A model generated the notes under the pieces. That model worked only from the letters and a program-made list of their open reading frames with translations. It had not been told where the DNA came from and ran no database searches. The position numbers and the translations under genes are program-made. Below, in pieces: positions 362 through 25,183 of a DNA stretch of 27,476 bases; within the stretch, counting starts at the first letter, position 1; every line of letters begins with the position of its first letter. The stretch is from a virus (taxonomy: Duplodnaviria; Heunggongvirae; Uroviricota; Caudoviricetes), in IMG/VR virus record IMGVR_UViG_3300010998_000001, positions 1 to 27,476 of that record; one strand, 5' to 3'.

Positions 362-390
362 TTGACAAAATGCTTTTAGTCTGTTATAAT
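362..390 (+). promoter_or_regulatory. Sigma-A/sigma70-type promoter
   Basis: TTGACA (362-367), 17-bp spacer, TGnTATAAT (-10 at 385-390), A-rich upstream element. Confidence 0.85.
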
Positions 391-1427: not shown

Positions 1428-1831
1428 ACGAGACAATTAATTTCGATCCAAATGTGGTGATTGATATGGGTTGGTTAAATGTATCTCATCGTAAGTGTGA
1501 TGTATGTGGCAAGGAAACGGATGTAGTAGCTTGCAGCTCTGCCTTTGGCGGCGAAACGTTTGCTTATTGTAACGAGTGTTGGAAAGCGGGAGCGGAGCCA
1601 TACGGCCACATGGTATCGTTTATTGCGGCGGCTGGGCATTTTCCAGAGGATATTAATTTGAACTATCAATATATGGTTCGCGCCATATTGAAATATCTGA
1701 ATATCAAAGAAGAGAAGTTTATTAAAGATGTAGAAAAATCCATCTCTATGCTTGACGAAGCATATGACGAATATTGTCAAGAAAATAAATCAGAGGAAGG
1801 AGATTCGGATGAAGAGAACTTGTTCGGATAG
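1424..1831 (+). CDS. Hypothetical protein with CxxC pairs
   Basis: 135 aa; CDVC and CNEC; ATGA overlap with the upstream ORF. Confidence 0.65.
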   Translation: MNETINFDPNVVIDMGWLNVSHRKCDVCGKETDVVACSSAFGGETFAYCNECWKAGAEPYGHMVSFIAAAGHFPEDINLNYQYMVRAILKYLNIKEEKFIKDVEKSISMLDEAYDEYCQENKSEEGDSDEENLFG

Positions 1832-2057
1832 CCGATTTGAAATATGGAATTCATCGTATGTGAATCTACCGAACACCAGGGAAGAACAAGATAAGTATGT
1901 TCATATTATTCAGATTGAAGCGGCTACAGACAAAGATACATATATCGTCGAGGTAGTTGATTGCCCTCTTCCTCCGGGAATGAGTAGTGTGGTAGCCGCT
2001 CCAATCATTCCATTTTTAAGTGCTGCGGCAACAAAGAGACTTAATGATACAGGATAA
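1809..2057 (+). CDS. Hypothetical protein
   Basis: Lies in the 1752..2057 ORF; ATG 1809 follows GAGGAAGGAG. Confidence 0.45.
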   Translation: MKRTCSDSRFEIWNSSYVNLPNTREEQDKYVHIIQIEAATDKDTYIVEVVDCPLPPGMSSVVAAPIIPFLSAAATKRLNDTG

Positions 2058-2240
2058 TAAAAATCTTCTACCTAGCGCCGGGGGAGTCGAGAACAGAAAT
2101 TCAAATATTGCGACAAAATTTCTTATTGTATAGATGCCAACTACTGGAAAGGCACTACTTTTGAACATTATTTGCAAAAGCATATCCGTCAGTTGGTTAT
2201 CGAATGCGAGGTAAACAGTGAAAGAAATTCAACGGAATAA
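2044..2240 (+). other. Stand-alone C5-methyltransferase target-recognition-like module 1, frameshifted at G5 (2080-2084)
   Basis: ATG 2044. Adding one G gives MIQDNKNLLPSAGGSREQKFKYCDKISYCIDANYWKGTTFEHYLQKHIRQLVIE...*. The SYCIDANYxKG...RQLV pattern resembles variable-region modules I recall from phage Dcm proteins; not database-verified. Confidence 0.65.
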
Positions 2241-2381
2241 AAAATCCGGGGGAGTTCTAAAAATCAAGTCATAATTGATGACACTTATGGCTTTGAAAAA
2301 TCGCCTAGAATATATGTCAATATAGTTCCAGCGTTGAGAAGCGCAAGGCAAGGATTGAAAGTTTTAATTGTTAAGGATTAA
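2218..2381 (+). other. Stand-alone C5-methyltransferase target-recognition-like module 2, frameshifted at G5 (2248-2252)
   Basis: GTG 2218 after a GAGGT RBS. Adding one G gives MKEIQRNKKSGGSSKNQVIIDDTYGFEKSPRIYVNIVPALRSARQGLKVLIVKD*. IDDTYGF...RIY...PALRS.R.GLKV resembles phage Dcm variable-region modules. Confidence 0.65.
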
Positions 2382-2386
2382 AGCAC

Positions 2387-2680
2387 ATGAATGAAGATAA
2401 TGAGACTGTCGTAAATATGATGCCGAATGGTAAGCCCGATTCTGGCGTAGCGAAAAAGAGATTTAATGACCGCAAAAAGAAACGGCGGCAGATCGAAAAC
2501 ACAAATTACTCTTGGAGCGCTGGCTGGTCTGTGGATGATCGTTATGTGCATCGGCGCAAAAATTCAAAATACCTTCAGTGGCTTAAACGCGAAGCCAATC
2601 GTAAAATTCGTAGGATGCCAGATGTATCAAATGGCGGAGAATACAAGAAAGCTTTTGATGTTTGGTGGTCTTACTGGTAA
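2387..2680 (+). CDS. Hypothetical basic protein
   Basis: 97 aa Lys/Arg-rich ORF in the gene train. Confidence 0.6.
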   Translation: MNEDNETVVNMMPNGKPDSGVAKKRFNDRKKKRRQIENTNYSWSAGWSVDDRYVHRRKNSKYLQWLKREANRKIRRMPDVSNGGEYKKAFDVWWSYW

Positions 2681-4964: not shown

Positions 4965-5075
4965 GCAGTATTTTTACTGTTAAAATATTGGTTTTATTGA
5001 AAATTGACCGTGCGAAAACGCCCAATATATGGGGGTTATCGTTTTAACAAACTTTTGAAAATTGGGGGTGAGGCT

Positions 5076-5661
5076 ATGTCGGGCAGAATTTTGTACATTT
5101 CTGACCTGCATTAGTCATTTTGGACATAAAAATATACTCTCTTATGACAATCGCCCGTTCCTAAACGTGGAAGAGCATGATGAAGAGTTGATTCGCCGCT
5201 GGAATGAGGCGGTGGATTGTGATGATGACGTTTGGATTCTCGGAGATATTAGCTGGCATGGCGCTCAGAAAACCATAGAGATTTTCAATCGTTTAAATGG
5301 AGTGAAGCATCTTTGTGTTGGCAACCATGATGCAAAGTTGCTCCGCAATGAAGATGTACGAAAGCTGTTTGTAGAGATCGTTCCTTATAAGGAAATCCAG
5401 TTGAACGCTAATACAGGCATTGTGCTTTGTCATTATCCGATCCCGTGTTATAACAATCATTATTACGGCTGGTATCATTTGTACGGCCACGTTCATATTA
5501 GCTGGGAGTGGAACATGATGGAACACCTTCAGCGCGAGATGCGCGATCTCTACGGTAAGCAGAGTAATATGTACAATGTCGGTTGCATGATTCCATATAT
5601 GGATTACACACCAAAGACACTAGAACAAATTATTGAGGATAGTAAAGAGTATAGTAAATGA
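5076..5661 (+). pseudogene. Metallophosphoesterase interrupted by a 7-bp insertion in the DxH motif
   Basis: ATG 5076 after GGGGTGAGG gives MSGRILYISDLH*. Removing TAGTCAT (5112-5118) restores SDLHFGHKN, continuing to LGD, GNHD, CHYP and GHVH. Confidence 0.8.
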
Positions 5662-7349
5662 AGATGACGAAGAAGTGCATCTCCGCAGCCAACAAGATTG
5701 TTATGGCGGCAAAAAGTTATGACGCTATGTTGGCAGGAGAAATACCAGTAGATAATGGAGTTGTTCTTACTGATGGACTATCTCTAGTTTTTAGCCCTAT
5801 GTCTTTTGGATTATCAAGATGCCTTTCTGATAATTATGATTTGGTCGGGGGGAGATTAAAAACTACACTTATCAGTGCTTGCAATGTTGATAAGATATTA
5901 GTAAACACTCCATTTCAATTAAAAAAGGTTTCCAGCAAACTATATAACCTTTGTAAAGAACATCAAATTCAAAATAAATACGGACAGAAATTCTTAGATA
6001 TTGATGGTTCTGTTTTTGATACAAAACAACTTCTAAATATTTTTAGTGTTGTTGGCCGTAAAGCGTGTGGCTATCTAGGTGAAAATCCAGAATTATTTGG
6101 CGGCAATAAGTATTTAATTATTGAACCAGAAGATTGTAATTATGAGAATGATGTCTTTGGTATTTTGTTGCAATCAAGAAAATCCGGCTTGTTCCAAGAA
6201 ACCGTTCTTGGTAAAGTTGATAAAGTTCAAAAAGCGATTGAGCGTTTGAAAAACTTTGAACCACCCGAAGGCTATTATCTAGCGTTCTCTGGTGGTAAGG
6301 ATAGTCAATGTATTTATCATCTGGCGAAACTCGCAGGAGTAAAGTTTGATGCGCATTATTCTGTAACAACAGTTGATCCGCCAGAGTTAATGAGATTTAT
6401 TAAGCAAGAGTATCCTGATGTTGAATGGGAATATCATTATTATCCAGATGATCCAAAGTATAATCATCCGAGTGGCAAGCGTAGACAAATTACAATGTGG
6501 AATTTGATTGCAAACCATACAATTCCGCCAACGAGACAGGCAAGATATTGTTGCTCTGAGTTGAAGGAAACGGGTGGCGAAGGTAGACTTGTAGTTACTG
6601 GTGTTCGGTGGGCTGAAAGTGTAAGACGTAGAGATTTGCATGGCGTTGTTGATATGCGAACTACATCGAAGGTTTTGATTAACCAGGCCATGGAGAATAA
6701 TCCAGCGGCCACATTAAACAAACATGAGTCTTTGATCTTTATGGATGATAACGAAGAATCAAAACGAATGGTTGAATATTGTTATGTCCGTAAGCGTACT
6801 ACAGTCAATCCGATTATTGATTGGGAAGATGATGATGTTTGGGAATTTCTTAATGAGGTTGTCAAAGTCCAGCATTGTACATTGTATGATGAAGGATATA
6901 CAAGACTTGGATGTATTGGTTGCCCGTTGCAGGGTAGGGAGGGTATGTTAAAAGATTTTGAACGCTACCCTAGATACAAAGAATTATACATAAAAGCATT
7001 TGATAAGATGATTAAAAATCATCCTGGCGAAATAAAAGTGGCGACTGGTGAATTGGTAACTGACGATTCCTCCGGGGGGGGAGAAAAATTCTCAGAGAAT
7101 GGATTCGATGGAACGCCTGAATCCTCATCGTCCAAGCCCGGAGATCAACCGATGGATCAAGATGAAAACAGGCGTGGAAGCGTTTATGGAGTGGATCAAC
7201 CTATTCTAAGTTCTGTCGGGGGGGAGAGAATCATGCTCAGCGAATGGACAGGAGAGCAGATATTCCACCTCTGGCTATGGGCGCACAGAGCAGACAGAAC
7301 AGAGCAACCGCCATGCAAACTTGTCCCAAACGGGAGAAGAACAGCATGA
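5658..7349 (+). CDS. PAPS reductase (CysH/DndC-like, PP-loop) family protein with an N-terminal extension and a poly-G-switchable C-terminus
   Basis: AFSGGKDS, RYCCSELKE, TGVRWAES..R, NPIIDW and RLGCIGCP motifs from about aa 180; G tracts at 7074-7081 and 7218-7224. Confidence 0.88.
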   Translation: MKMTKKCISAANKIVMAAKSYDAMLAGEIPVDNGVVLTDGLSLVFSPMSFGLSRCLSDNYDLVGGRLKTTLISACNVDKILVNTPFQLKKVSSKLYNLCKEHQIQNKYGQKFLDIDGSVFDTKQLLNIFSVVGRKACGYLGENPELFGGNKYLIIEPEDCNYENDVFGILLQSRKSGLFQETVLGKVDKVQKAIERLKNFEPPEGYYLAFSGGKDSQCIYHLAKLAGVKFDAHYSVTTVDPPELMRFIKQEYPDVEWEYHYYPDDPKYNHPSGKRRQITMWNLIANHTIPPTRQARYCCSELKETGGEGRLVVTGVRWAESVRRRDLHGVVDMRTTSKVLINQAMENNPAATLNKHESLIFMDDNEESKRMVEYCYVRKRTTVNPIIDWEDDDVWEFLNEVVKVQHCTLYDEGYTRLGCIGCPLQGREGMLKDFERYPRYKELYIKAFDKMIKNHPGEIKVATGELVTDDSSGGGEKFSENGFDGTPESSSSKPGDQPMDQDENRRGSVYGVDQPILSSVGGERIMLSEWTGEQIFHLWLWAHRADRTEQPPCKLVPNGRRTA

Positions 7350-7636
7350 CGGACGAATGGTGGAAACTGACGGCGCAAGAGAATTTCGACCTTTGGATCA
7401 GCAAGTGTTAATAAACCATTCACTCTCCGGGGGGGGAGAGATGGTTCAACTGGTGGGTCAATTTCGGGAGCCGACATCCTTAACTGGTGGATGTGGATGC
7501 TCAGAGAGCCAGGAAGTCGAAAGGAGCCAAACCCGTTGCAGAGTAGGTGAGCAATATCTGATTTATTGGCTTTGGAGATGCCGTCAAAACCCGGCAGATG
7601 AAGAGCCAAAGCCAAAAATCATTATTTAATTGGTGA
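7074..7636 (+). repeat. Array of alternative C-terminal cassettes gated by G8 (7074-7081), G7 (7218-7224) and G8 (7429-7436)
   Basis: Seven complete copies and one degenerate copy of [G/A]xxx[F/L]xxW[hydrophobic], spread over all three + frames. Confidence 0.8.
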
Positions 7637-11174: not shown

Positions 11175-11402
11175 ATGCTAAAAGTAAAACGAAATAAGTG
11201 TAAGTATTGCCGATACTCATTTGTATCAGCGGTAGTAGAGGACAATAAATATCTTCCGGCTTGTATTTACATATTGATGACTGGCAAACGTAGACCTTGC
11301 GAAGCGGGAGAGAATTGTGTCGTGTTTGAGAGGCAGACAAATGTTCCTCATTTTAACAGGGTGGATGATTTTTGTGGAGGTGTAGATCGGGTATATGGCT
11401 AA
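11175..11402 (+). CDS. Hypothetical Cys-rich protein
   Basis: CKYCRY...CIYIL.TGKRRPC...C; GGGAG RBS. Confidence 0.6.
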   Translation: MLKVKRNKCKYCRYSFVSAVVEDNKYLPACIYILMTGKRRPCEAGENCVVFERQTNVPHFNRVDDFCGGVDRVYG

Positions 11403-11913
11403 GATGTATCTAATGAGTGGCATGAGCGGAAGCGGCAAAACAACATTCGCCCGCCAGTTCGCAAAAGACAATAACCTTCAGTATCTTTGCATTGATGATT
11501 TCTATACGCTGATGAATGGCGACGAGAAACGTCACGAAGATGAGCATTACGTCTGGCAAGTATTTTTTCTTGCGATCCATCTGGCAGAGGAACATGGCCG
11601 CGATATTATTATTGACACTAACGCGCCGACAAAGAGCAAGCGTATCGAGTTCATTGACTGGTTTCCGAATTTTGAGCATCATCTGATCTTCATTGATGCT
11701 AACAAGGAGCTGTGTATCAAGAACAATGCCAGTCGTAATCGCCGGATTCCCATGGGTGAAATGGATAGGATGTTCACGGAACTTGAACACCCAATGATTT
11801 CCGAGGATCGTCGCTGGGATAGTATTACAATCTATCGGAACGAGGACAATAAAGAGTTTTCTATTATGGCGCGACTTCGATATGACGCATGGGAAGGCGG
11901 CTGGTGTCTGTGA
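11395..11913 (+). CDS. P-loop kinase (AAA_33 / polynucleotide-kinase-like)
   Basis: Walker A GMSGSGKTT, IIIDTN, lid-like NNASRNR. Confidence 0.85.
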   Translation: MAKMYLMSGMSGSGKTTFARQFAKDNNLQYLCIDDFYTLMNGDEKRHEDEHYVWQVFFLAIHLAEEHGRDIIIDTNAPTKSKRIEFIDWFPNFEHHLIFIDANKELCIKNNASRNRRIPMGEMDRMFTELEHPMISEDRRWDSITIYRNEDNKEFSIMARLRYDAWEGGWCL

Positions 11914-12416
11914 AGAAATATAAACACGGTATGTATGGCGGCAAGTTCGAGCCATTTCATAAAGGCCATCTTTATTGCCTCGAAACAGCGGCCAGCGAGT
12001 GCGAAAAAGTTTCACTCATTCTCTTTGCTGGCGGAGCTGACGAAGTACGAATTGAAAGTGAAATGGAAAGATACAATCCCGTCATTCGCGCACATTTGAG
12101 TATTGATGCCAGAATAGCGAAGTGCAAAGAAATTGCGGCGAAGTTTGATAACGTCGAGTTCCATTTCCTAGATATTTCCTCTTGCCGTAATGAAGATGGT
12201 TCCGAAGATTGGGAAGCTGAGACTCCGCTTGTTCTGGATGAAGTGGGTGAGTTCGATGCCGTCTATGGCTCAGAGATTTCGTATAGCGATTATTTCAGCC
12301 GAGCTTATCCAAACGCGGAATACAGATGCCTCGATCCTGAGAGGATCAAATGCCCGATCTCCGGCACAATGATTCGTAATATGCCGATGATTAATATGAA
12401 ATATTGGGAGATTTAA
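11889..12416 (+). CDS. HxGH nucleotidyltransferase, NadR/NMN adenylyltransferase-like
   Basis: GMYGGKFEPFHKGH and C-terminal PISGTMIR; lies near pnuC; true start may be GTG 11910. Confidence 0.85.
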   Translation: MGRRLVSVKKYKHGMYGGKFEPFHKGHLYCLETAASECEKVSLILFAGGADEVRIESEMERYNPVIRAHLSIDARIAKCKEIAAKFDNVEFHFLDISSCRNEDGSEDWEAETPLVLDEVGEFDAVYGSEISYSDYFSRAYPNAEYRCLDPERIKCPISGTMIRNMPMINMKYWEI

Positions 12417-12793
12417 ATGTGAAAAAATGGGCTAGAAAGATAAAGAAAGATGCTAGATCAACAGTCGCATTAGAAACAGGTCAATTTGATTATCCTGTTT
12501 ATGTATGTCAATCATATAATGGCGATACAATTGTTTCATACATAAAACCTATACTTGATGATTGCTTAGAAGATGATTCAAAGTATTATTATAATATAGA
12601 TGATAATAAAGTAAGTGTTTGTATTGACACGGTTAAAAAGTGTGAAAATATTGGCGAGTATATAGAGACAATATTGCAATTTCATGTCGCCTTGGAAGTT
12701 ATCACATCAATTTATAATTATAATGATGGTGAAGTTTTCACGATTCGATCCAAGGAAGATATTCCAACAATCGCTTATAAAGGAGCTTATTAA
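12404..12793 (+). CDS. Hypothetical protein (AT-rich)
   Basis: 129 aa ORF between the nucleotidyltransferase and pnuC. Confidence 0.55.
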   Translation: MGDLNVKKWARKIKKDARSTVALETGQFDYPVYVCQSYNGDTIVSYIKPILDDCLEDDSKYYYNIDDNKVSVCIDTVKKCENIGEYIETILQFHVALEVITSIYNYNDGEVFTIRSKEDIPTIAYKGAY

Positions 12794-12795
12794 AA

Positions 12796-13518
12796 ATGTT
12801 TATTAAAGATATGCGCGACTCTATGAAGTCTCTCAAGTGGTACGAGTGGCTTATGGCGGCGATCCTGATTATTGTTGCCGCGTATTACATGATTGTTTCT
12901 TTCGTCAATCCGTCCGCGAATGACAATCCGGCATGGCTGGCTGTTCTGAATTTCATTTCCGCAGTTTGCGGTGCGTTCTGTATTTTCCTGTGCGCAAAAG
13001 CCGATATTAGTAACTTTGCATTTGGCATTGTGAACACGGTTGTCTACATAGTCTATCTGGCTTATTGGCGGATTTACGGTACGCTCTTGCTGGAAGTGCT
13101 GGTTTATTTCCCCGTGAACATCATTTCTTGGGTCAAATGGGCGCAGCATCGTAGCGATAAAAACCGACTTTTAACGAAGGCTAAGAAGCTGACAGTGCGC
13201 CAGAATGTCATTGTTGCGGCGGTAATTGGCCTTGCGGCGGTGGCCTATCATGCGATTCTCGTGGCGATTGGCGGCACTGTTCCCTGGCTGGATGCGTTCA
13301 CTTTGAGCATTGGTCTTGTTGCTGTATTCCTTGAGATGTTCCGCTATCGTGAGCAGTATGTTTGGTGGATCATTACTGATGTGATCGCGGTTGCTATGTA
13401 TATCGTACACTTCGATGGCGTGTATCTGACAAAAAAGATCGTGTATCTAATTATGGCTGTCATTGGCCTGGTGAATTGGGTGCGCCTTCAGAAAACAGAA
13501 AATGTAATTAACGAGTAA
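12796..13518 (+). CDS. pnuC: PnuC-family nicotinamide riboside/vitamin transporter
   Basis: About 8 hydrophobic segments; SNFAFGIVN, PWLDA and REQYVWWIITDV (W..W...D/N-type motif). Confidence 0.85.
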   Translation: MFIKDMRDSMKSLKWYEWLMAAILIIVAAYYMIVSFVNPSANDNPAWLAVLNFISAVCGAFCIFLCAKADISNFAFGIVNTVVYIVYLAYWRIYGTLLLEVLVYFPVNIISWVKWAQHRSDKNRLLTKAKKLTVRQNVIVAAVIGLAAVAYHAILVAIGGTVPWLDAFTLSIGLVAVFLEMFRYREQYVWWIITDVIAVAMYIVHFDGVYLTKKIVYLIMAVIGLVNWVRLQKTENVINE

Positions 13519-17587: not shown

Positions 17588-17853
17588 AAATGACAAATAA
17601 TGAAGCAATTTCTTATCTAATTGAAGCTTACGCATTTTGTTCCGCAAGATATTGTCCTAATGGCGAGTCTGCTGAATGGGAAGAAAAGCTTGAGAAGTTC
17701 CGCGAAGCAATTTCTCATGTTGCAACAAATCTAAATACGAGCATTATCAATTGGCGCGATTATCCTTTGGCTAGAAATGATCCGCCTGTCACGCCGATGA
17801 CTCCTTACGTTACATATTGCAATTCATCCAGAGGTATTTCAGAGGATGAGTAA
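17584..17853 (+). CDS. Hypothetical protein
   Basis: 89 aa; GAGG RBS. Confidence 0.55.
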   Translation: MKMTNNEAISYLIEAYAFCSARYCPNGESAEWEEKLEKFREAISHVATNLNTSIINWRDYPLARNDPPVTPMTPYVTYCNSSRGISEDE

Positions 17854-18592
17854 TGGATACCAGTTGGTAAACTTTTGTGAGTTCGATAAATACGCTGAGA
17901 AAAGTTATTGCGCTGTACATGGTGTTGATCCATCTTTAAATCTTGGTGATATTACAAAGGTTGATGAAACCAATCTTGCACCATTTAATATGATTTGCGG
18001 AGGAAGTCCATGCCAAGATTTCTCCGTCGCGGGAAGTCAAAAGGGAAGTAAATGGGTTTGTAATGAGTGCGGCCATACATATAATCCTCTGACGGTTCAT
18101 TATAGCTCAAGAGATCATTGCCCCATGTGTTTTGGCACAGACATTGATAAAACGCGGAGTTCTCTGCTTGTTGAATGGCTGCGTATCATTCGCGCCAATA
18201 AACCTAACTGGTGTATCTATGAAAATGTAAAGAATCTGGTTGGCAAGAAATTCAAAGACACGTTTCAGATGTTCCTCGATGAGCTGGATGCATATGGATA
18301 CAACTGTTATTATCAGGTACTTAACGCAAAAGACTTTGGTGTGCCTCAAAACAGAGAACGTGTCTATGTGATTGCCATTAAGAAAGAATTAGATAACGGC
18401 AAATTCAAATTCCCCGTTCCATTTGATAGTGATGTAAGCTTAAAGGATATTCTGGAAGAGGATGTAAATGCAAAGTATTATATCGACAGCCCAAAAGCCA
18501 CGGAGCTTATTGAAGAGCTGAAGGAGAACGGTAAGTTAGAACAAAACGTTTCTCGGACTATCCGCTCCGGGGGCGAGCGAGTTGCGACCTGA
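17846..18592 (+). CDS. DNA (cytosine-5)-methyltransferase, catalytic part (motifs II-VIII) with Zn-ribbon insertion
   Basis: FCEFDKYA (II), GDIT (III), GGSPCQDFS (IV), ENVKNL (VI), LNAKDFGVPQNRERVY (VII/VIII); no motif I at the N-terminus. Confidence 0.92.
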   Translation: MSNGYQLVNFCEFDKYAEKSYCAVHGVDPSLNLGDITKVDETNLAPFNMICGGSPCQDFSVAGSQKGSKWVCNECGHTYNPLTVHYSSRDHCPMCFGTDIDKTRSSLLVEWLRIIRANKPNWCIYENVKNLVGKKFKDTFQMFLDELDAYGYNCYYQVLNAKDFGVPQNRERVYVIAIKKELDNGKFKFPVPFDSDVSLKDILEEDVNAKYYIDSPKATELIEELKENGKLEQNVSRTIRSGGERVAT

Positions 18593-19301
18593 ACCATTAT
18601 TGGGATTTAGTATTCAAAAAAGAAAACAACATAATGAATGATATTATACGTTTAGGAAATGTATGTCCAACGAAAACCAGAGATAACCCAAACCAAGGAA
18701 GAGTTTACGATCCTTCTGGCATAGCGCCTACGATCACTAACCTTTCGGGGGAGGCAATCTTCAACCTATGGTGGTTGTAATATATAAACATGAGAAACAA
18801 GAAAGAATACATAGTTATGGCTCTGAGAGGTAGGAGTTCGGGGGTGACGGTTATGAACAAAAACCGGAACTACAATACGAGTTCACCAATACCATCACAA
18901 CCGTTTTGAAAGATAATTACATTTTAGAGCTGGTTGATAATCAAAATGAAGAAAATTACAGACATAATTGAGCCATTTGATGAAAATTATGTAAAGATTA
19001 AGCAAGCAACCAAACAGGGATATATCTTATGTCCGTTCGGGGGTGTGCAGATTTGAGTTTTCCTGGTTCTAAACTTCGTAGAGGAAGAGTACAGGGTGGA
19101 GGTTATATCTGCCCTACATTAATGGCTGGCGAGCCAAATATTTATAAGATCGAGAAAATAGAAAATGGTTAATGGTTTGAACACTTGTGAAAATGATTAC
19201 GCCAGAACGATCAAGGCTCAGTGTGGCAAAAATAGTATTGCTAACTTTTCAAGAATTGATGGTTTTGGTGCGACGGGAGCCATTGCGGGGGTGACGAGGA
19301 T
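18542..19301 (+). other. Array of five target-recognition-like modules, each interrupted by a C-G5 tract
   Basis: G5 at 18569-73, 18747-51, 18840-44, 19039-43 and 19287-91; each reads sensibly after adding one G. Confidence 0.8.
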
Positions 19302-19676
19302 TTGGATTACAGAATAAGAAAGTTGATCCCATTGGAGTGTTGGGAGCTGATGGGGTTTAGTAAAGAAGATTTCTTTTCTGCACAGCTCGGTTCAAGAGAT
19401 AAGGCTAAAGAGCTTTTGTCTAAATATCCCGATGGTGGTTTAGAAATGCTCGATGAGGCAGAGGCTAATTGTAAGGTTTCAAATAGTCAACTGTATAAAC
19501 AAGCTGGCAACTCTATTGTTGTTGATGTTTTGTATTACATATATAAAGAACTTTATGATGCAATGCCATATTTATTTGATGATCTCCAAGTAGGAAGTTA
19601 TTTCTCTGGCATCGGCGCATTTGAAAGAGGTCTTGATTTGTTATACGAAAACGTAATACAAACTAATGAAGGATAA
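19302..19676 (+). CDS. DNA (cytosine-5)-methyltransferase C-terminal part (motifs IX, X and relocated motif I)
   Basis: RIRKLIPLECWELMGF (IX), LYKQAGNSIVVDVL (X), then VGSYFSGIGAFE (I). Confidence 0.9.
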   Translation: MDYRIRKLIPLECWELMGFSKEDFFSAQLGSRDKAKELLSKYPDGGLEMLDEAEANCKVSNSQLYKQAGNSIVVDVLYYIYKELYDAMPYLFDDLQVGSYFSGIGAFERGLDLLYENVIQTNEG

Positions 19677-19678
19677 AT

Positions 19679-19879
19679 ATGAAAGATACATATGAGAACG
19701 CGAATTTTTGCGTATGTTGCGGAGAGATCATTCCTGAAGGAAGAATGGTTTGCAAAAGCTGTGAAGATGGGTCTTATTCGGCCTACAAGAAAGACCCTGG
19801 CAAGCGTAACAAAAGAGATAAAAAAAGAGGTCGCGGCAAACGCGCAGACCTCGATCTCCTTGATGATGCTTGGTATTAA
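19679..19879 (+). CDS. Small Zn-finger hypothetical protein
   Basis: CVCCGEIIPEGRMVCKSC. Confidence 0.65.
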   Translation: MKDTYENANFCVCCGEIIPEGRMVCKSCEDGSYSAYKKDPGKRNKRDKKRGRGKRADLDLLDDAWY

Positions 19880-20487
19880 GTTTTTTCTAAGAAAAGTTTT
19901 TGCATATCATTGTCCCACATAATGTTAGACCTATTGTTTTTCCATCTGGCGTAATCATTGATCCGATTCCTGGATGCTTCGCCAGATAGCATAAATCTTC
20001 TTTGAACATCATCCGCCACATGAATGTCCATTAAAGAGAAGAACGGCATAGGTGCAAGAAGCGTGGCAGCAAAATAATCCGCCTCTTTTTCATATTCTGG
20101 ATAGCTGCTTAGATCGTTTTCGGCAAACTTCTCAATATGTGGACACAATTCAAAGTGACCGCATAGGATATGGCCGATCTCGTGAGCTAGTGTCCAGCGC
20201 CTCCGGCCAGCATTATTATCAAACACGGCCTCATTTGTCATAATGAGATAACGATTTGTTGTTCGATCATAGTATGTGCAGCCAGACGTACTTTCGCAAG
20301 CGTCGATTACTTCTTGCACTTTCTTTCTGGACATGACAGCCACACGTTGATAGGAAGTATGGCGACAATTAGGGATAATGTTAACAATAGATTTAAGATC
20401 GAGCGGGAATTTAATGTGATCCATTCCCTTGTAGATTTCATATACGATGTTTTCAATATACCTATATCTTACCATCCTAATCTCCAA
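19876..20487 (-). CDS. ImmA/IrrE-family metallopeptidase
   Basis: RRRWTLAHEIGH (HExxH) and EKEADYFAATLLAP; directly downstream of the XRE gene. Confidence 0.9.
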   Translation of the reverse strand: MEIRMVRYRYIENIVYEIYKGMDHIKFPLDLKSIVNIIPNCRHTSYQRVAVMSRKKVQEVIDACESTSGCTYYDRTTNRYLIMTNEAVFDNNAGRRRWTLAHEIGHILCGHFELCPHIEKFAENDLSSYPEYEKEADYFAATLLAPMPFFSLMDIHVADDVQRRFMLSGEASRNRINDYARWKNNRSNIMWDNDMQKLFLEKT

Positions 20488-20818
20488 AAGCGTCTTTGAA
20501 TCCGGCGCGTAATATCGCCATCATCGTCTTACGACCTGAAGGTGACGAGTTCTCTCGCGCACGTTGGAACGCAATAATATCATCGTCGCCTAATAGTTCT
20601 GATGCAGGAGCTTCGATTTCTGTTCTACCAGAAAGGAAATCGACTGAAACGTTGAAATAATTGGCAATTCTCACCACCTTATCAATGGATGGCACATTGC
20701 GCGATTTCCACTTTGAAATAGTTCCGTTCGAGATACCACATTCTTTTTCAAGCTGCTGTAGTGTGACATGATTTCTTTCGCACAGCATTTTAATACGGTC
20801 ATACAAAGTGGTTTCCAT
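20477..20818 (-). CDS. XRE-family HTH repressor
   Basis: TLQQLEKECGISNGTISKW...PSIDKVVRIANYFNVSVDFL; AGGAG RBS on the minus strand. Confidence 0.92.
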   Translation of the reverse strand: METTLYDRIKMLCERNHVTLQQLEKECGISNGTISKWKSRNVPSIDKVVRIANYFNVSVDFLSGRTEIEAPASELLGDDDIIAFQRARENSSPSGRKTMMAILRAGFKDAFGD

Positions 20819-20984: not shown

Positions 20985-21296
20985 ATGGAAAAGTTTTATG
21001 CGAAAGATACTGACATTCCAATGGTTGTGGCGATTTTCGCAACAGAACAGGAACGAAACGATTGGGTCAACTACAAAGACTACGAAATTCTGCACCTCCC
21101 TCCAGAAGATGAAGAGTATAAGAGCCGCGTGGCAATTACATATGAAGAAGCGTATGACATTACTAATGGGATGATCCTTGAGGAAGAGTATTTCTTACCG
21201 GATGAATTTTTCGATCATATTAAGTTTTGCTGTAGCTGGCAGATGAATTTTTGTAATGAGGCAAGTAATGGAGAGCAAAGTATTTCAGTTAATTAA
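20985..21296 (+). CDS. Hypothetical acidic protein
   Basis: Within the 20970..21296 ORF; GGGAG RBS before MEKFY. Confidence 0.6.
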   Translation: MEKFYAKDTDIPMVVAIFATEQERNDWVNYKDYEILHLPPEDEEYKSRVAITYEEAYDITNGMILEEEYFLPDEFFDHIKFCCSWQMNFCNEASNGEQSISVN

Positions 21297-22539
21297 ACAA
21301 GAGCAGGACAGACAAGATTCTACGGTAGAGTTGATTGCTAGCGAAAATTTTGTAAGTGAAAACGTCTTGCGAGCAATGGGTTCCGTGCTGACAAATAAGT
21401 ACAGCGAGGGTTATCCAGATGTTGATAGAACTGGTAATCGCGGCAGATACTATGGCGGTTGCCACGTTGTAGATAAGATCGAGCAATATTGTTGTGACAA
21501 GTGGCGTGAGGTCTTTAGAACAAATTACCATGTGAATGTGCAACCACATTCTGGCTCTAGCGCAAATCTCGCGGCTTATATGAGCGTCTTAAAGCCTGGC
21601 GATACGATCCTTGCCATGAACTTGAATAATGGCGGGCATCTGACACATGGTAGCTCTGTCAATTTTAGCGGTAAACTTTTCAATTTCGTTTTCTATGATG
21701 TTGATGAGAATGGCTTAATTGACTATGATGATTTAGAAAACAAAATTTATGAATATCGCCCCAAGATGGTTGTTGCGGGGGCCAGCGCTTATTCTAGGAT
21801 TATTAATTTTAAGCGCATTCATAATATCATCACAACTGTCTTGGATAGAATTGCGGATGAGAACATTCATGCGCAACGTTTTAATCGAGATGGCGAATGT
21901 ATCTCAGATATTCCAGAAGATTATCCAAGACCTTATTTCATGGTGGATATGTCCCATATCGCTGGACTTGTGGCCGCTGGTTGGCATCCGTCGCCATTTG
22001 GCGAGGCTGATATTATTACTACGACAACTCATAAGACATTGCGAGGGCCGAGGGGCGGAATTATCTTTTGCCGTAATGCTCTAGCGAAGAAAGTTGATAG
22101 CGCTGTGTTCCCTGGTACACAGGGAGGAGCATTGCAGAATGTCATTGCGGCGAAGGCTATCGCGGCGGAAGAAGCTTGTACATATGAGTATAAAGATTAC
22201 ATACGCAGGGTAGTTGAAAACACACGAGCTATGGCCGAAGAGTTTTCCAATCTTGGCTATAACGTCGTAACTGGCGGAACAGATAACCACTTATTCCTAA
22301 TAGATTTTTCTAAGACGCATCCTAATCTGACAGGTGCTATGATCCAGGCTGAATTAGATGCCCATGGCATCACGGTCAATAAGAACTGCGTTCCTGGTGA
22401 AAAGCGGAGTCCAAAGGAAACAAGCGGCATCCGCGTCGGGTGTGCAGCTATGACAACAAAAGGATTTAATAAAGATCATTTTGTAATTCTGGCGCACAAT
22501 ATAGACAGGATCATTAAGAAGATGGATACAGACAATTAA
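21256..22539 (+). CDS. glyA: Serine hydroxymethyltransferase
   Basis: ELIASEN, NKYSEGYP, RYYGGC, NVQPHSG, GGHLTHG, TTTTHKTLRGPRGG, GGTDNHL; likely start ATG 21268. Confidence 0.96.
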   Translation: MRQVMESKVFQLIKQEQDRQDSTVELIASENFVSENVLRAMGSVLTNKYSEGYPDVDRTGNRGRYYGGCHVVDKIEQYCCDKWREVFRTNYHVNVQPHSGSSANLAAYMSVLKPGDTILAMNLNNGGHLTHGSSVNFSGKLFNFVFYDVDENGLIDYDDLENKIYEYRPKMVVAGASAYSRIINFKRIHNIITTVLDRIADENIHAQRFNRDGECISDIPEDYPRPYFMVDMSHIAGLVAAGWHPSPFGEADIITTTTHKTLRGPRGGIIFCRNALAKKVDSAVFPGTQGGALQNVIAAKAIAAEEACTYEYKDYIRRVVENTRAMAEEFSNLGYNVVTGGTDNHLFLIDFSKTHPNLTGAMIQAELDAHGITVNKNCVPGEKRSPKETSGIRVGCAAMTTKGFNKDHFVILAHNIDRIIKKMDTDN

Positions 22540-24092: not shown

Positions 24093-24629
24093 ATGGCTTT
24101 GACGGCGGAACAGCAAGAATTAGTAACTAACAACCATCAACTGATTTACGGATTCTGCAATCAAAGAAATATATCGCTTGAAGAAAACTACGATCTATGC
24201 GCCATTGGGTTATGCAAAGCAGCGGAGATTTTTGATCCGAGCCGGGGGCTTTCGTTTTCCACTCTGGCGTATAGATGTATGGCTAATGAAGTTCAAATGC
24301 AAAAGCGGAAAGAAAACACAATTGCCAGAAAAGCAGATGTTTCCGCAGATTCATTAGACAGAACAATTAAAACAGATGGCGGTACAACAATTACACTCCA
24401 TGATGTTCTATCCAATACATTGGTCGCAAATCATAATCCTCTTTCTACTGTAATGTTCAAAGATTTCTATGAATCATTAACGGAACAAGAAAAGATTGTG
24501 ATTGCGTACAGAATGGCAGGATTGAAACAGCGTGAGATTGCAGAGAGAATACATAAATCGAGAGCATATGTCTGTATGATTCTATCCAGAGTAAAAGAAA
24601 AGGTAGCGAGGTACACAGAGATTATATGA
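24093..24629 (+). CDS. Sigma-70-family sigma factor
   Basis: IGLCKAAEIFDPSRGLSFSTLAYRCM (region 2); C-terminal HTH KQREIAERIHKSRAYV (region 4). Confidence 0.85.
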   Translation: MALTAEQQELVTNNHQLIYGFCNQRNISLEENYDLCAIGLCKAAEIFDPSRGLSFSTLAYRCMANEVQMQKRKENTIARKADVSADSLDRTIKTDGGTTITLHDVLSNTLVANHNPLSTVMFKDFYESLTEQEKIVIAYRMAGLKQREIAERIHKSRAYVCMILSRVKEKVARYTEII

Positions 24630-25183
24630 TTGTTCAAGACCTACATAATTTGCCGAAAACGTATGATTTGATTTATGCTGATCCGCCGTGGAAACAAAGC
24701 AAGGGCGGTAAGAAAGCTGTTAGAGCCAATAGCAGCGGAACAGAACTTGATTATCCAGTAATGAGCTTAGATGATATTAAAGAACATTTGCGGCTCGCAA
24801 CAGACAGTTCGGGGGAGAACGCGATACTTTTCTTGTGGACGATAGACAAGTATTTGTTTGAAGCGCAGCAGATAGCAGAATCTCTTGGCTGGAAACTCCA
24901 TGCAAGAATGATATGGGATAAGGTTACTGGCATCCCTGCCGCGTTTACTGTTCGATATGGGCATGAGTATTTACTTTATATGTATAAGGGGAAGTTCACT
25001 CCTGTTGCGACGGAAGAGCGCGGAAAGATACATACTGTGTTCCGCGAAAAGGTCACATCTCATAGCAAAAAGCCTAAGATTGCATACAATATCATCGAAA
25101 GACTTTATCCGACTCTTTCTAAGATCGAGCTTTATGCTCGAAATGAAAGAGAAGGGTGGGATAGTTTTGGTAACGAATTGTGA
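24626..25183 (+). CDS. MT-A70-family adenine methyltransferase
   Basis: YDLIYADPPW, LFLW, HEYLL, HSKKP and IELYAR motifs. Confidence 0.92.
   Translation: MIVQDLHNLPKTYDLIYADPPWKQSKGGKKAVRANSSGTELDYPVMSLDDIKEHLRLATDSSGENAILFLWTIDKYLFEAQQIAESLGWKLHARMIWDKVTGIPAAFTVRYGHEYLLYMYKGKFTPVATEERGKIHTVFREKVTSHSKKPKIAYNIIERLYPTLSKIELYARNEREGWDSFGNEL

Follow-up and report, generated by a model that had tools for sequence, protein, structure and literature searches.

A complete phage genome of 155,476 bp with direct terminal repeats, recovered from an animal gut metagenome, carries two short reading frames between ordinary small genes, each broken at a run of five guanines. The locus raises the question of whether these frames are genes, what they would encode, and how a product could be made from them. 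The stretch analysed, referred to here as the window, comprises the first 27,476 nucleotides (27.5 kb) of this record. A preliminary description, made from the letters alone, had proposed two orphan modules resembling the variable region of C5-methyltransferases, far from the methylase itself. The reading favoured here, with a probability of roughly 0.5, is that the orphans are phase-variable plug-in subunits, in which slippage of the run to G6 would yield a target-recognition domain (TRD) of 54–65 aa that docks in trans on a split methylase core and adds an anti-restriction specificity.

Layout of the orphan mini-genes and of the split methylase

Two overlapping mini-genes with starts of their own were present as previously described, with an ATG at 2044 and a GTG at 2218, the latter preceded by a GAGGT (Table 1) with a duplex energy of -7.3 kcal/mol against the canonical anti-Shine–Dalgarno (SD) sequence. 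The common element CCGGGGGAGT lies at 2078 and 2246, and these are its sole two copies in the genome. Mini-gene 1 reads through 12 codons to GCC GGG GGA, after which the unshifted frame ends at a stop after 29 codons in all, whereas a shift of one base back gives 51 open codons, ending at 2240; in mini-gene 2, 10 codons lead to TCC GGG GGA, the unshifted frame has 18 codons before a stop, and reading shifted back by one base continues for 42 codons, as far as 2381. The claim that each needs one extra G also held, and this would give products of 65 and 54 aa. Both modules are therefore OFF as sequenced, and the ON state would be G6; the OFF-state ORFs of 29 and 18 codons are mini-genes overlooked by gene callers. 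The same layout of leader, run and TRD as in mini-gene 1 recurs inside the methylase array of one relative (L072).

Table 1. Features of the window referred to in the text, with positions counted from its first nucleotide
Feature	Position	Strand	Details
Perfect sigma-70/sigma-A-type promoter	362..390	+	TTGACA-17-TATAAT, TG; consensus match only; heads the gene run holding the orphans
Upstream small gene	1809..2057	+	3' end overlaps ATG of mini-gene 1
Orphan mini-gene 1	2044..2240	+	ATG, 12-codon leader, C-G5, out-of-frame TRD about 2115-2204, TAA; OFF
C-G5 switch of mini-gene 1	2079..2084	+	GCC GGG GGA; G6 would be in frame
SD-like GAGGT of mini-gene 2	2208..2212	+	Inside the tail of mini-gene 1
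Orphan mini-gene 2	2218..2381	+	GTG, 10-codon leader, C-G5 2247-2252, out-of-frame TRD about 2271-2363, TAA; OFF
Downstream small gene	2387..2680	+	Its SD lies within the last codons of mini-gene 2
PAPS-reductase-domain gene	5658..7629	+	G6, G8, G7 and G8 runs at 5847, 7074, 7218 and 7429; slippage control
N-core	17846..18592	+	Motifs II-VIII, zinc-finger-like insert; ends in TRD1 cut at C-G5 18569; PF00145 E 2.7e-49
Three TRD mini-genes	18634..19172	+	Own ATGs 18634/18790/18946; cut at C-G5 18747/18840/19039
TRD5 and C-core	19165..19676	+	TRD5, C-G5 19287, then motifs IX, X and terminal motif I; circular permutation

The orphans sit within a run of small genes downstream of the promoter consensus, and no terminator-like site was found between the two. 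Translational coupling of mini-gene 1 is likely, because the end of the upstream gene overlaps ATG 2044, whose own SD is weak (-2.9). Read-through from that gene was ruled out by three intervening stops, and a bypass start downstream of the orphan runs was ruled out because none is in frame. Contigs from two sequencing runs of one sample, one of which may be the source of the record, showed 0 differences and 0 gaps across the orphan region; a sequencing or homopolymer artefact was ruled out by the agreement of independent contigs, by unbroken ordinary genes, and by the recurrence of the split design in two bacterial assemblies. The region is a shuffled accessory one in which gene order varies among relatives. 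Distant homologues of the downstream gene were detected in 3 of 42 relatives, and neither flanking gene had a relative in viral contigs, so that assembled genomes offered no syntenic copy of the orphan locus for comparison.

All four PF00145 matches in the genome fall at 17846–19676, making this the sole C5-methyltransferase found, 15.5 kb from the orphans. The enzyme is split within its variable region into 17846–18592 and 19165/19302–19676, with PF00145 on both halves, and is permuted between motifs I and II; a CxxC...CxxC insert was noted behind the catalytic motif. Five TRDs at this locus and the two orphans make up the modules of the window, and stops and restarts separate array TRDs and orphans alike into individual ORFs. 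In relatives, too, each array module is an ORF of its own, with an SD-like sequence and a stop. Ten bases ahead of a candidate bypass start at TTG 19302, the last run of the window methylase reads GGGGGTGA, the strongest SD-like site among those tested (-14.3), so that translation of the C-core from this TTG is conceivable. The matching valine of the commonest last module in relatives is GTG in 10 of 10 distinct copies, and such a bypass start is present in only 9 of 17 split genes.

Two other arrangements were seen in related methylases. The heptamer A_AAT_TTT, in phase, ends 68 of 80 related genes (35 distinct 3' ends; L087:11326-11640, L091, L097, L076, L133 and others), and the -1 frame behind it is open for at least 40 codons in 53 genes. 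Nine of these frames, read by eye, contained further TRD modules, mostly lacking a start of their own, which makes the heptamer at the C-core end a candidate programmed -1 ribosomal frameshift that would append TRDs; the methylase of the window does not have it. At L001:2900-3135 and in L088, L271, L272 and L189, a single G-run selects between two TRDs in overlapping frames behind one mini-gene start. Module 1 is an alternative-frame product in loci of the L001 type, and the leader-gated design may have arisen in this way.

Further features of the window were recorded in passing. A tRNA-like sequence was seen by eye at 265–340, ahead of the promoter, and accessory genes include an N6-methyltransferase (465–1229), an MT-A70 methyltransferase (24626–25183), a kinase/cytidylyltransferase/NMN-transporter cluster (11395–13518) and a serine hydroxymethyltransferase (21256–22539). 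In a second metallophosphoesterase gene (5062–5115), the first motif (ATG 5076) is apparently out of frame with the rest, around TAG 5112, and a break or small insertion near this stop is possible. On the minus strand directly behind the methylase (19876–20818) lie repressor-like and metallopeptidase-like genes which we take, by eye, to be an ImmR/ImmA-like pair, in line with a temperate phage. One Clostridiaceae and one Oscillospiraceae bacterial assembly contain split methylases of the same design, and a clostridial host is therefore likely. Six-base palindromes are strongly avoided across the genome (observed versus expected: CGATCG, 0 versus 92; GGCGCC, 0 versus 81; TGATCA, 4 versus 117), a sign of long restriction pressure.

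Identity, intactness and distribution of the orphan modules

Both protein and viral-locus searches with the frames that follow the runs matched the variable region of C5-methyltransferases, as had been anticipated. For module 1, which carries the motif CIDANYWKG, both protein matches contained PF00145 and a core was found nearby in all 60 viral loci matched. Module 2 (motif IIDDTYGF) gave 34 protein matches, 23 with PF00145, 9 without any Pfam family and 2 to unrelated repeat proteins; the 9 are read as module-only or partial proteins, three of them being ORFs of 51–66 aa. The first four residues of one stand-alone 66-aa ORF containing module 2 (P0003) are also those of mini-gene 2. For module 2, a search restricted to proteins of similar length gave no match, neither post-run frame was assigned a Pfam family, and no solved structure matching module 1 was found. 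In 13 examples, module 1 forms the entire variable region of phage methylases of 261–284 aa. The predicted model of one such one-TRD enzyme (pLDDT 84.5) has a C5-methyltransferase fold, with DNMT3 among the best Foldseek matches (TM about 0.82), and puts module 1, with low confidence (pLDDT 56–63), where a TRD belongs, after motif VIII and before motif IX. The orphans were thus confirmed, on sequence grounds, as putative stand-alone DNA-recognition modules of the C5-methyltransferase type; in calling them TRDs, we presume from their position and from general knowledge of the methylase family.

The preliminary description had considered whether the orphans might be decayed remnants of a deleted dcm gene, and they appear intact instead: conserved residues are kept, with 13 of 14 conserved columns retained in orphan 1 (comparable to members of the array), and no core trace is present in the flanks. 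As no core remnant was found in the first 4.5 kb of the window, an origin as the remnant of an adjacent deleted core was ruled out. Values of pN/pS were 0.20–0.28 for orphan 1 against six split-type relatives and 0.39–0.47 against six others, and 0.31–0.71 for orphan 2 against four; because the branches concerned are saturated, these values do not tell when selection might have been lost. In a simulation of 5% neutral divergence, both orphan frames were still open in 44% of cases, and the orphan data, given this survival and the saturation, indicate an absence of decay rather than current selection. Additional evidence comes from a contig of another study (X4), which covers 2053–2152 with 5 differences, no gap and the G5 kept. 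In the next 30 bases, read by eye at the loose end of the contig, the frame continues; of its ten codons, three differ synonymously and two carry replacements. The same sequencing run also holds the neighbouring gene; the evidence is a single contig of depth 2.7.

Remote modules were surveyed with 179 module peptides, used as a library to search this genome and 14 split-type relatives, all whole or nearly whole. Modules more than 1.5 kb from any core were confined to the orphan pair and one gene of another genome (G006), that is, to 2 of 15 genomes. The latter match (E 1.5e-7) stands apart from other remote matches, which were at the level of the reversed control. It is a 67-codon ORF consisting of an ATG, ten codons, A-G5 in frame, a TRD and a stop, and lies 15 kb from the core; its homologue in G004 is found directly behind the core and is OFF at C-G5 (pS 0.71, pN 0.19). 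No remote copies were found in 38 relatives with three module queries, a set that did not include the module type of G006, or among the 80 + 80 module-1 loci examined. Two partial genomes in which no core was found (L187 and L188) contain a start-less remnant of a module-2 homologue, so that stranded modules do occur. Remote modules are therefore real but rare, and live-looking and dead-looking cases both exist.

This distribution bears on a reading in which the orphans are stranded cassettes: part of a TRD mini-gene array that a rearrangement displaced or failed to carry along, with no function where it now lies and too recent to have decayed. The rarity of remote modules, the shuffled character of the region, the start-less remnants just mentioned, and the OFF state of both orphans all agree with it, as does the occurrence of both module types as tails behind the core in relatives. 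Against such a history stand the clean fit of the orphans between their neighbours, with overlapping starts and stops, and the retention of conserved residues with no core remnant alongside. Module 1 also remains in frame, with synonymous changes, in the X4 strain, which is about 5–10% diverged, and the remote gene of G006 is an independent in-frame case. Stranding is accordingly considered unlikely, while still deserving some weight.

Length variation at the G-runs

It had been proposed that all seven modules of the window share the same break. This stood insofar as all seven sites are C-G5 and would need one more G (2080, 2248, 18569, 18747, 18840, 19039 and 19287), but the break is not the same with respect to codon phase, four sites being in phase 0 and three in phase 2. 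The automated scorer was clear for only 4 of these 7 sites, the assignment of both orphan sites and of 18840 resting on ORF layout and module matches. The module regions are enriched about 20-fold in runs of G5 or longer, with 10 in 1,700 bp where the remainder of the genome predicts 0.43. The window has 7 copies of CCGGGGG versus 0.59 by chance, and only 3 of those 7 are TRD sites.

Of 82 related methylase loci, 19 are split, their G-runs being 5–12 long and following a C, A or T, and the remaining 63 are unbroken. A tree built from 18 split and 18 unbroken N-cores, with an unsure root, separates the two types across one supported branch (98/94). Scoring of 87 run sites in 18 split loci by comparison with intact modules left 59 after filtering, with 28 discarded; the set includes close kin (L001/L002 and L074–L082). 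A G5 needs one more base at 14 of 15 confident sites, whereas G6 is in frame at 11 of 12; at the 17 confident G7 sites, removal of one base is needed in 10, no change in 4 and addition of one in 3. One run site has G9 versus G10 in two host genomes, and in other phages module 1 is gated by (GA)n repeats of differing lengths.

Variation within a single sample was seen in the PAPS-reductase-domain gene used as a slippage control: two sequencing runs of that sample gave contigs with G7 in place of the G8 at 7429, and another study gave G6. This gene has an unrelated N-terminal part, and its 3' end consists of several short Trp-rich alternative endings in different frames; in G041 and G042, G-runs likewise interrupt genes with this domain. 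At the orphan runs (2080 and 2248), no length variants were seen in contigs, which drop rare variants. The MT-A70 gene is whole at C-G5 in this phage and broken at C-G6 in G004, so that this lineage does change between G5 and G6. Outside the methylase, 28 apparent G-run breaks were counted in 15 genomes, several in Dam, MT-A70 and PAPS-reductase genes and some in Thg1, ClpP and integrase genes; many of these resemble chance gene boundaries, the same filter giving 12–20 matches for A, T and C runs. A slippage-prone run is usually counted as 6–7 bases or more, and the orphan runs, at G5, fall below this.

A fixed C-G5 signal was not borne out, as both run length (5–12) and the preceding base vary among relatives. 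The C-G5 and longer runs of this genome lie in frame inside long ordinary genes in 18 of 29 cases, and CGGGGG is over-represented genome-wide (29 versus 14 expected here, 25 versus 7 in G003, and likewise in several relatives), a lineage-wide excess that likely explains the C ahead of the runs. In G000, G003, G004, G008 and G017, this excess goes together with a scarcity of CGGGG before A, C or T (25 versus 2 in G003), and the copies are mostly in frame in ordinary genes. A role for the C as part of a signal was ruled out by the varying preceding base and by the genome-wide, mostly in-frame occurrence of CGGGGG. No stimulatory structure was found behind the orphan runs (z +1.01 and -1.19), and only one of the seven window sites scored below -2. 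A programmed -1 frameshift calls for a fixed slippery sequence in a fixed, invariant phase; the sites instead have phases 0 and 2 and lengths of 5–12.

These observations also weigh on a second alternative, that the modules do act in trans but are made constantly at a low level, through -1 ribosomal frameshifting or transcriptional slippage by +1 G at C-G5. The uniform shift needed at all window sites and at nearly all confident G5 sites in relatives would suit such a mechanism; a glycine tRNA could presumably re-pair on GGG in any phase of G5, the diverged X4 strain keeps its G5 while the frame behind it looks selected, and the methylase family apparently uses a -1 heptamer elsewhere. On the other hand, homologous sites carry 5, 6 or 7 G, those with G7 mostly needing the opposite shift, and the difference in codon phase, the many in-frame runs in ordinary genes and the lack of stimulatory structure speak against it as well. 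Constant low-level production thus appears improbable, and the variation in run length points to slipped-strand phase variation rather than to a fixed ribosomal signal at C-G5.

Proposed action of the modules and relation to known systems

If the orphans are phase-variable plug-in subunits, the N-core would be made whatever the state of its run, which it precedes, and the C-core may start at TTG 19302, with the last run serving as its ribosome-binding site. A one-base replication slip from G5 to G6, presumably reversible, would then switch on one complete TRD, from either the array or the orphans; the resulting module of 54–65 aa would bind in trans to the two core halves, whose genes lie 15 kb away, and the docked module would add one methylation specificity and so protection against host restriction. 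Such trans logic is supported by the separate ORFs of array modules in relatives, by the in-frame stand-alone gene of G006, and by the orphans themselves, which have neither a core remnant beside them nor more than chance DNA similarity to the methylase locus. Against it count the rarity of remote modules, the presence of G5 runs only, and the absence of the bypass start from nearly half of the split genes; in the available text of PMC3404938, efficient complementation of M.SssI also seemed to need an intact small domain. In its most general form, the proposal holds that freely diffusing TRD subunits of 50–65 aa could be encoded anywhere in the genome, with constitutive core halves and any of six new specificities one G-slip away, for which we would give slightly less than even odds.

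It is quite improbable that the ON mini-proteins act apart from the methylase, as DNA-binding peptides masking restriction sites or as competitors damping the core. They have no covalent link to the core, and a free TRD5 would arise in the OFF state of site 19287, both of which such action could use; the module is nevertheless poorly ordered in the one-TRD enzyme model, so that it likely needs the core to fold, and its homologues stand in or beside a methylase gene except in G006 and L187/L188. The suggestion in the preliminary description of a recombination reservoir, with silent cassettes copied into the methylase array, is very unlikely: module order and content do differ between relatives and G-runs could act as microhomology, yet no word of more than 11 nt is common to the orphans and the methylase locus (chance level, the mean for random pieces being 10), no joint between the two loci was seen in four sequencing runs, and silent donors would have no need of starts, SD sequences or switches.

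The plug-in subunits proposed here can be set beside several known systems. Temperate Bacillus phages of the SPbeta group encode multispecific C5-methyltransferases (M.SPR, M.phi3T and M.rho11s) with several TRDs, all on one polypeptide. As in the SPR and phi3T enzymes, a phage C5-methyltransferase core appears to be served by several short exchangeable TRDs, with presumed protection against restriction; unlike them, the TRDs here are G-run-gated mini-genes, two of them 15 kb away, and the core is split and permuted. By analogy, the phage system would work like such a multispecific methylase, as generally known, combined with the contingency loci considered below, and departs from the former in not being one polypeptide. 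In type I restriction-modification, HsdS is a separate, variable specificity subunit, and hsdS and mod genes are phase-variable by repeats. The likeness lies in specificity from a separate, variable subunit together with repeat-driven switching; the difference is that those systems are amino-methyltransferases with large two-TRD subunits, whereas this is a C5 enzyme. Phase-variable type I specificity systems are treated in the accessible portion of PMC12707154, and no C5-enzyme counterpart of HsdS-type specificity subunits was found in the literature searched.

Halves of C5-methyltransferases cut in the variable region can assemble, as described in the available sections of PMC3404938 for M.AquI and M.EcoHK31I and for fragments of M.BspRI, M.BsuRI, M.HhaI and M.SssI. 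The core analysed here resembles the M.AquI type in being split in the variable region into two genes; in that type, as far as these sections go, the TRD stays on a core piece and no free TRD third subunit is described, whereas here the TRDs are separate ORFs. Natural circularly permuted C5-methyltransferases such as M.BssHII are all cut in the variable region according to the part of PMC5944983 available; the permuted motif order is shared, but the present enzyme starts at motif II and has motif I at its C-terminal end. Contingency loci are known in phages from T2 agt and T4 rIIA and from the polyG tracts of Fletchervirus (bioRxiv 10.1101/2025.10.21.683753; PMC11868660). To the extent covered by the available portions of these sources, homopolymer slippage there also switches phage genes, including those for DNA modification, as a bet-hedge against host defence; whole genes are switched by runs of 6–11 bases, unlike the G5 that would here gate single specificity modules via leaders with no other apparent role. 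No description of free TRD mini-genes was found in the literature searched, a search that most subscription papers and supplements lay beyond; PMC3711429 was considered as a prior account, and its available text does not describe such modules.

The remote modules offer the cleanest natural test of the TRD as a separate C5-methyltransferase subunit, since over a distance of 15 kb neither read-through nor frameshifting can join them to the core. If the proposed action is correct, specificity in these enzymes would be a swappable peptide, and large gut phages would hedge against changing restriction one motif at a time. A plug-in, combinatorial methylome would follow, and with it a programmable methyltransferase scaffold would be on offer.
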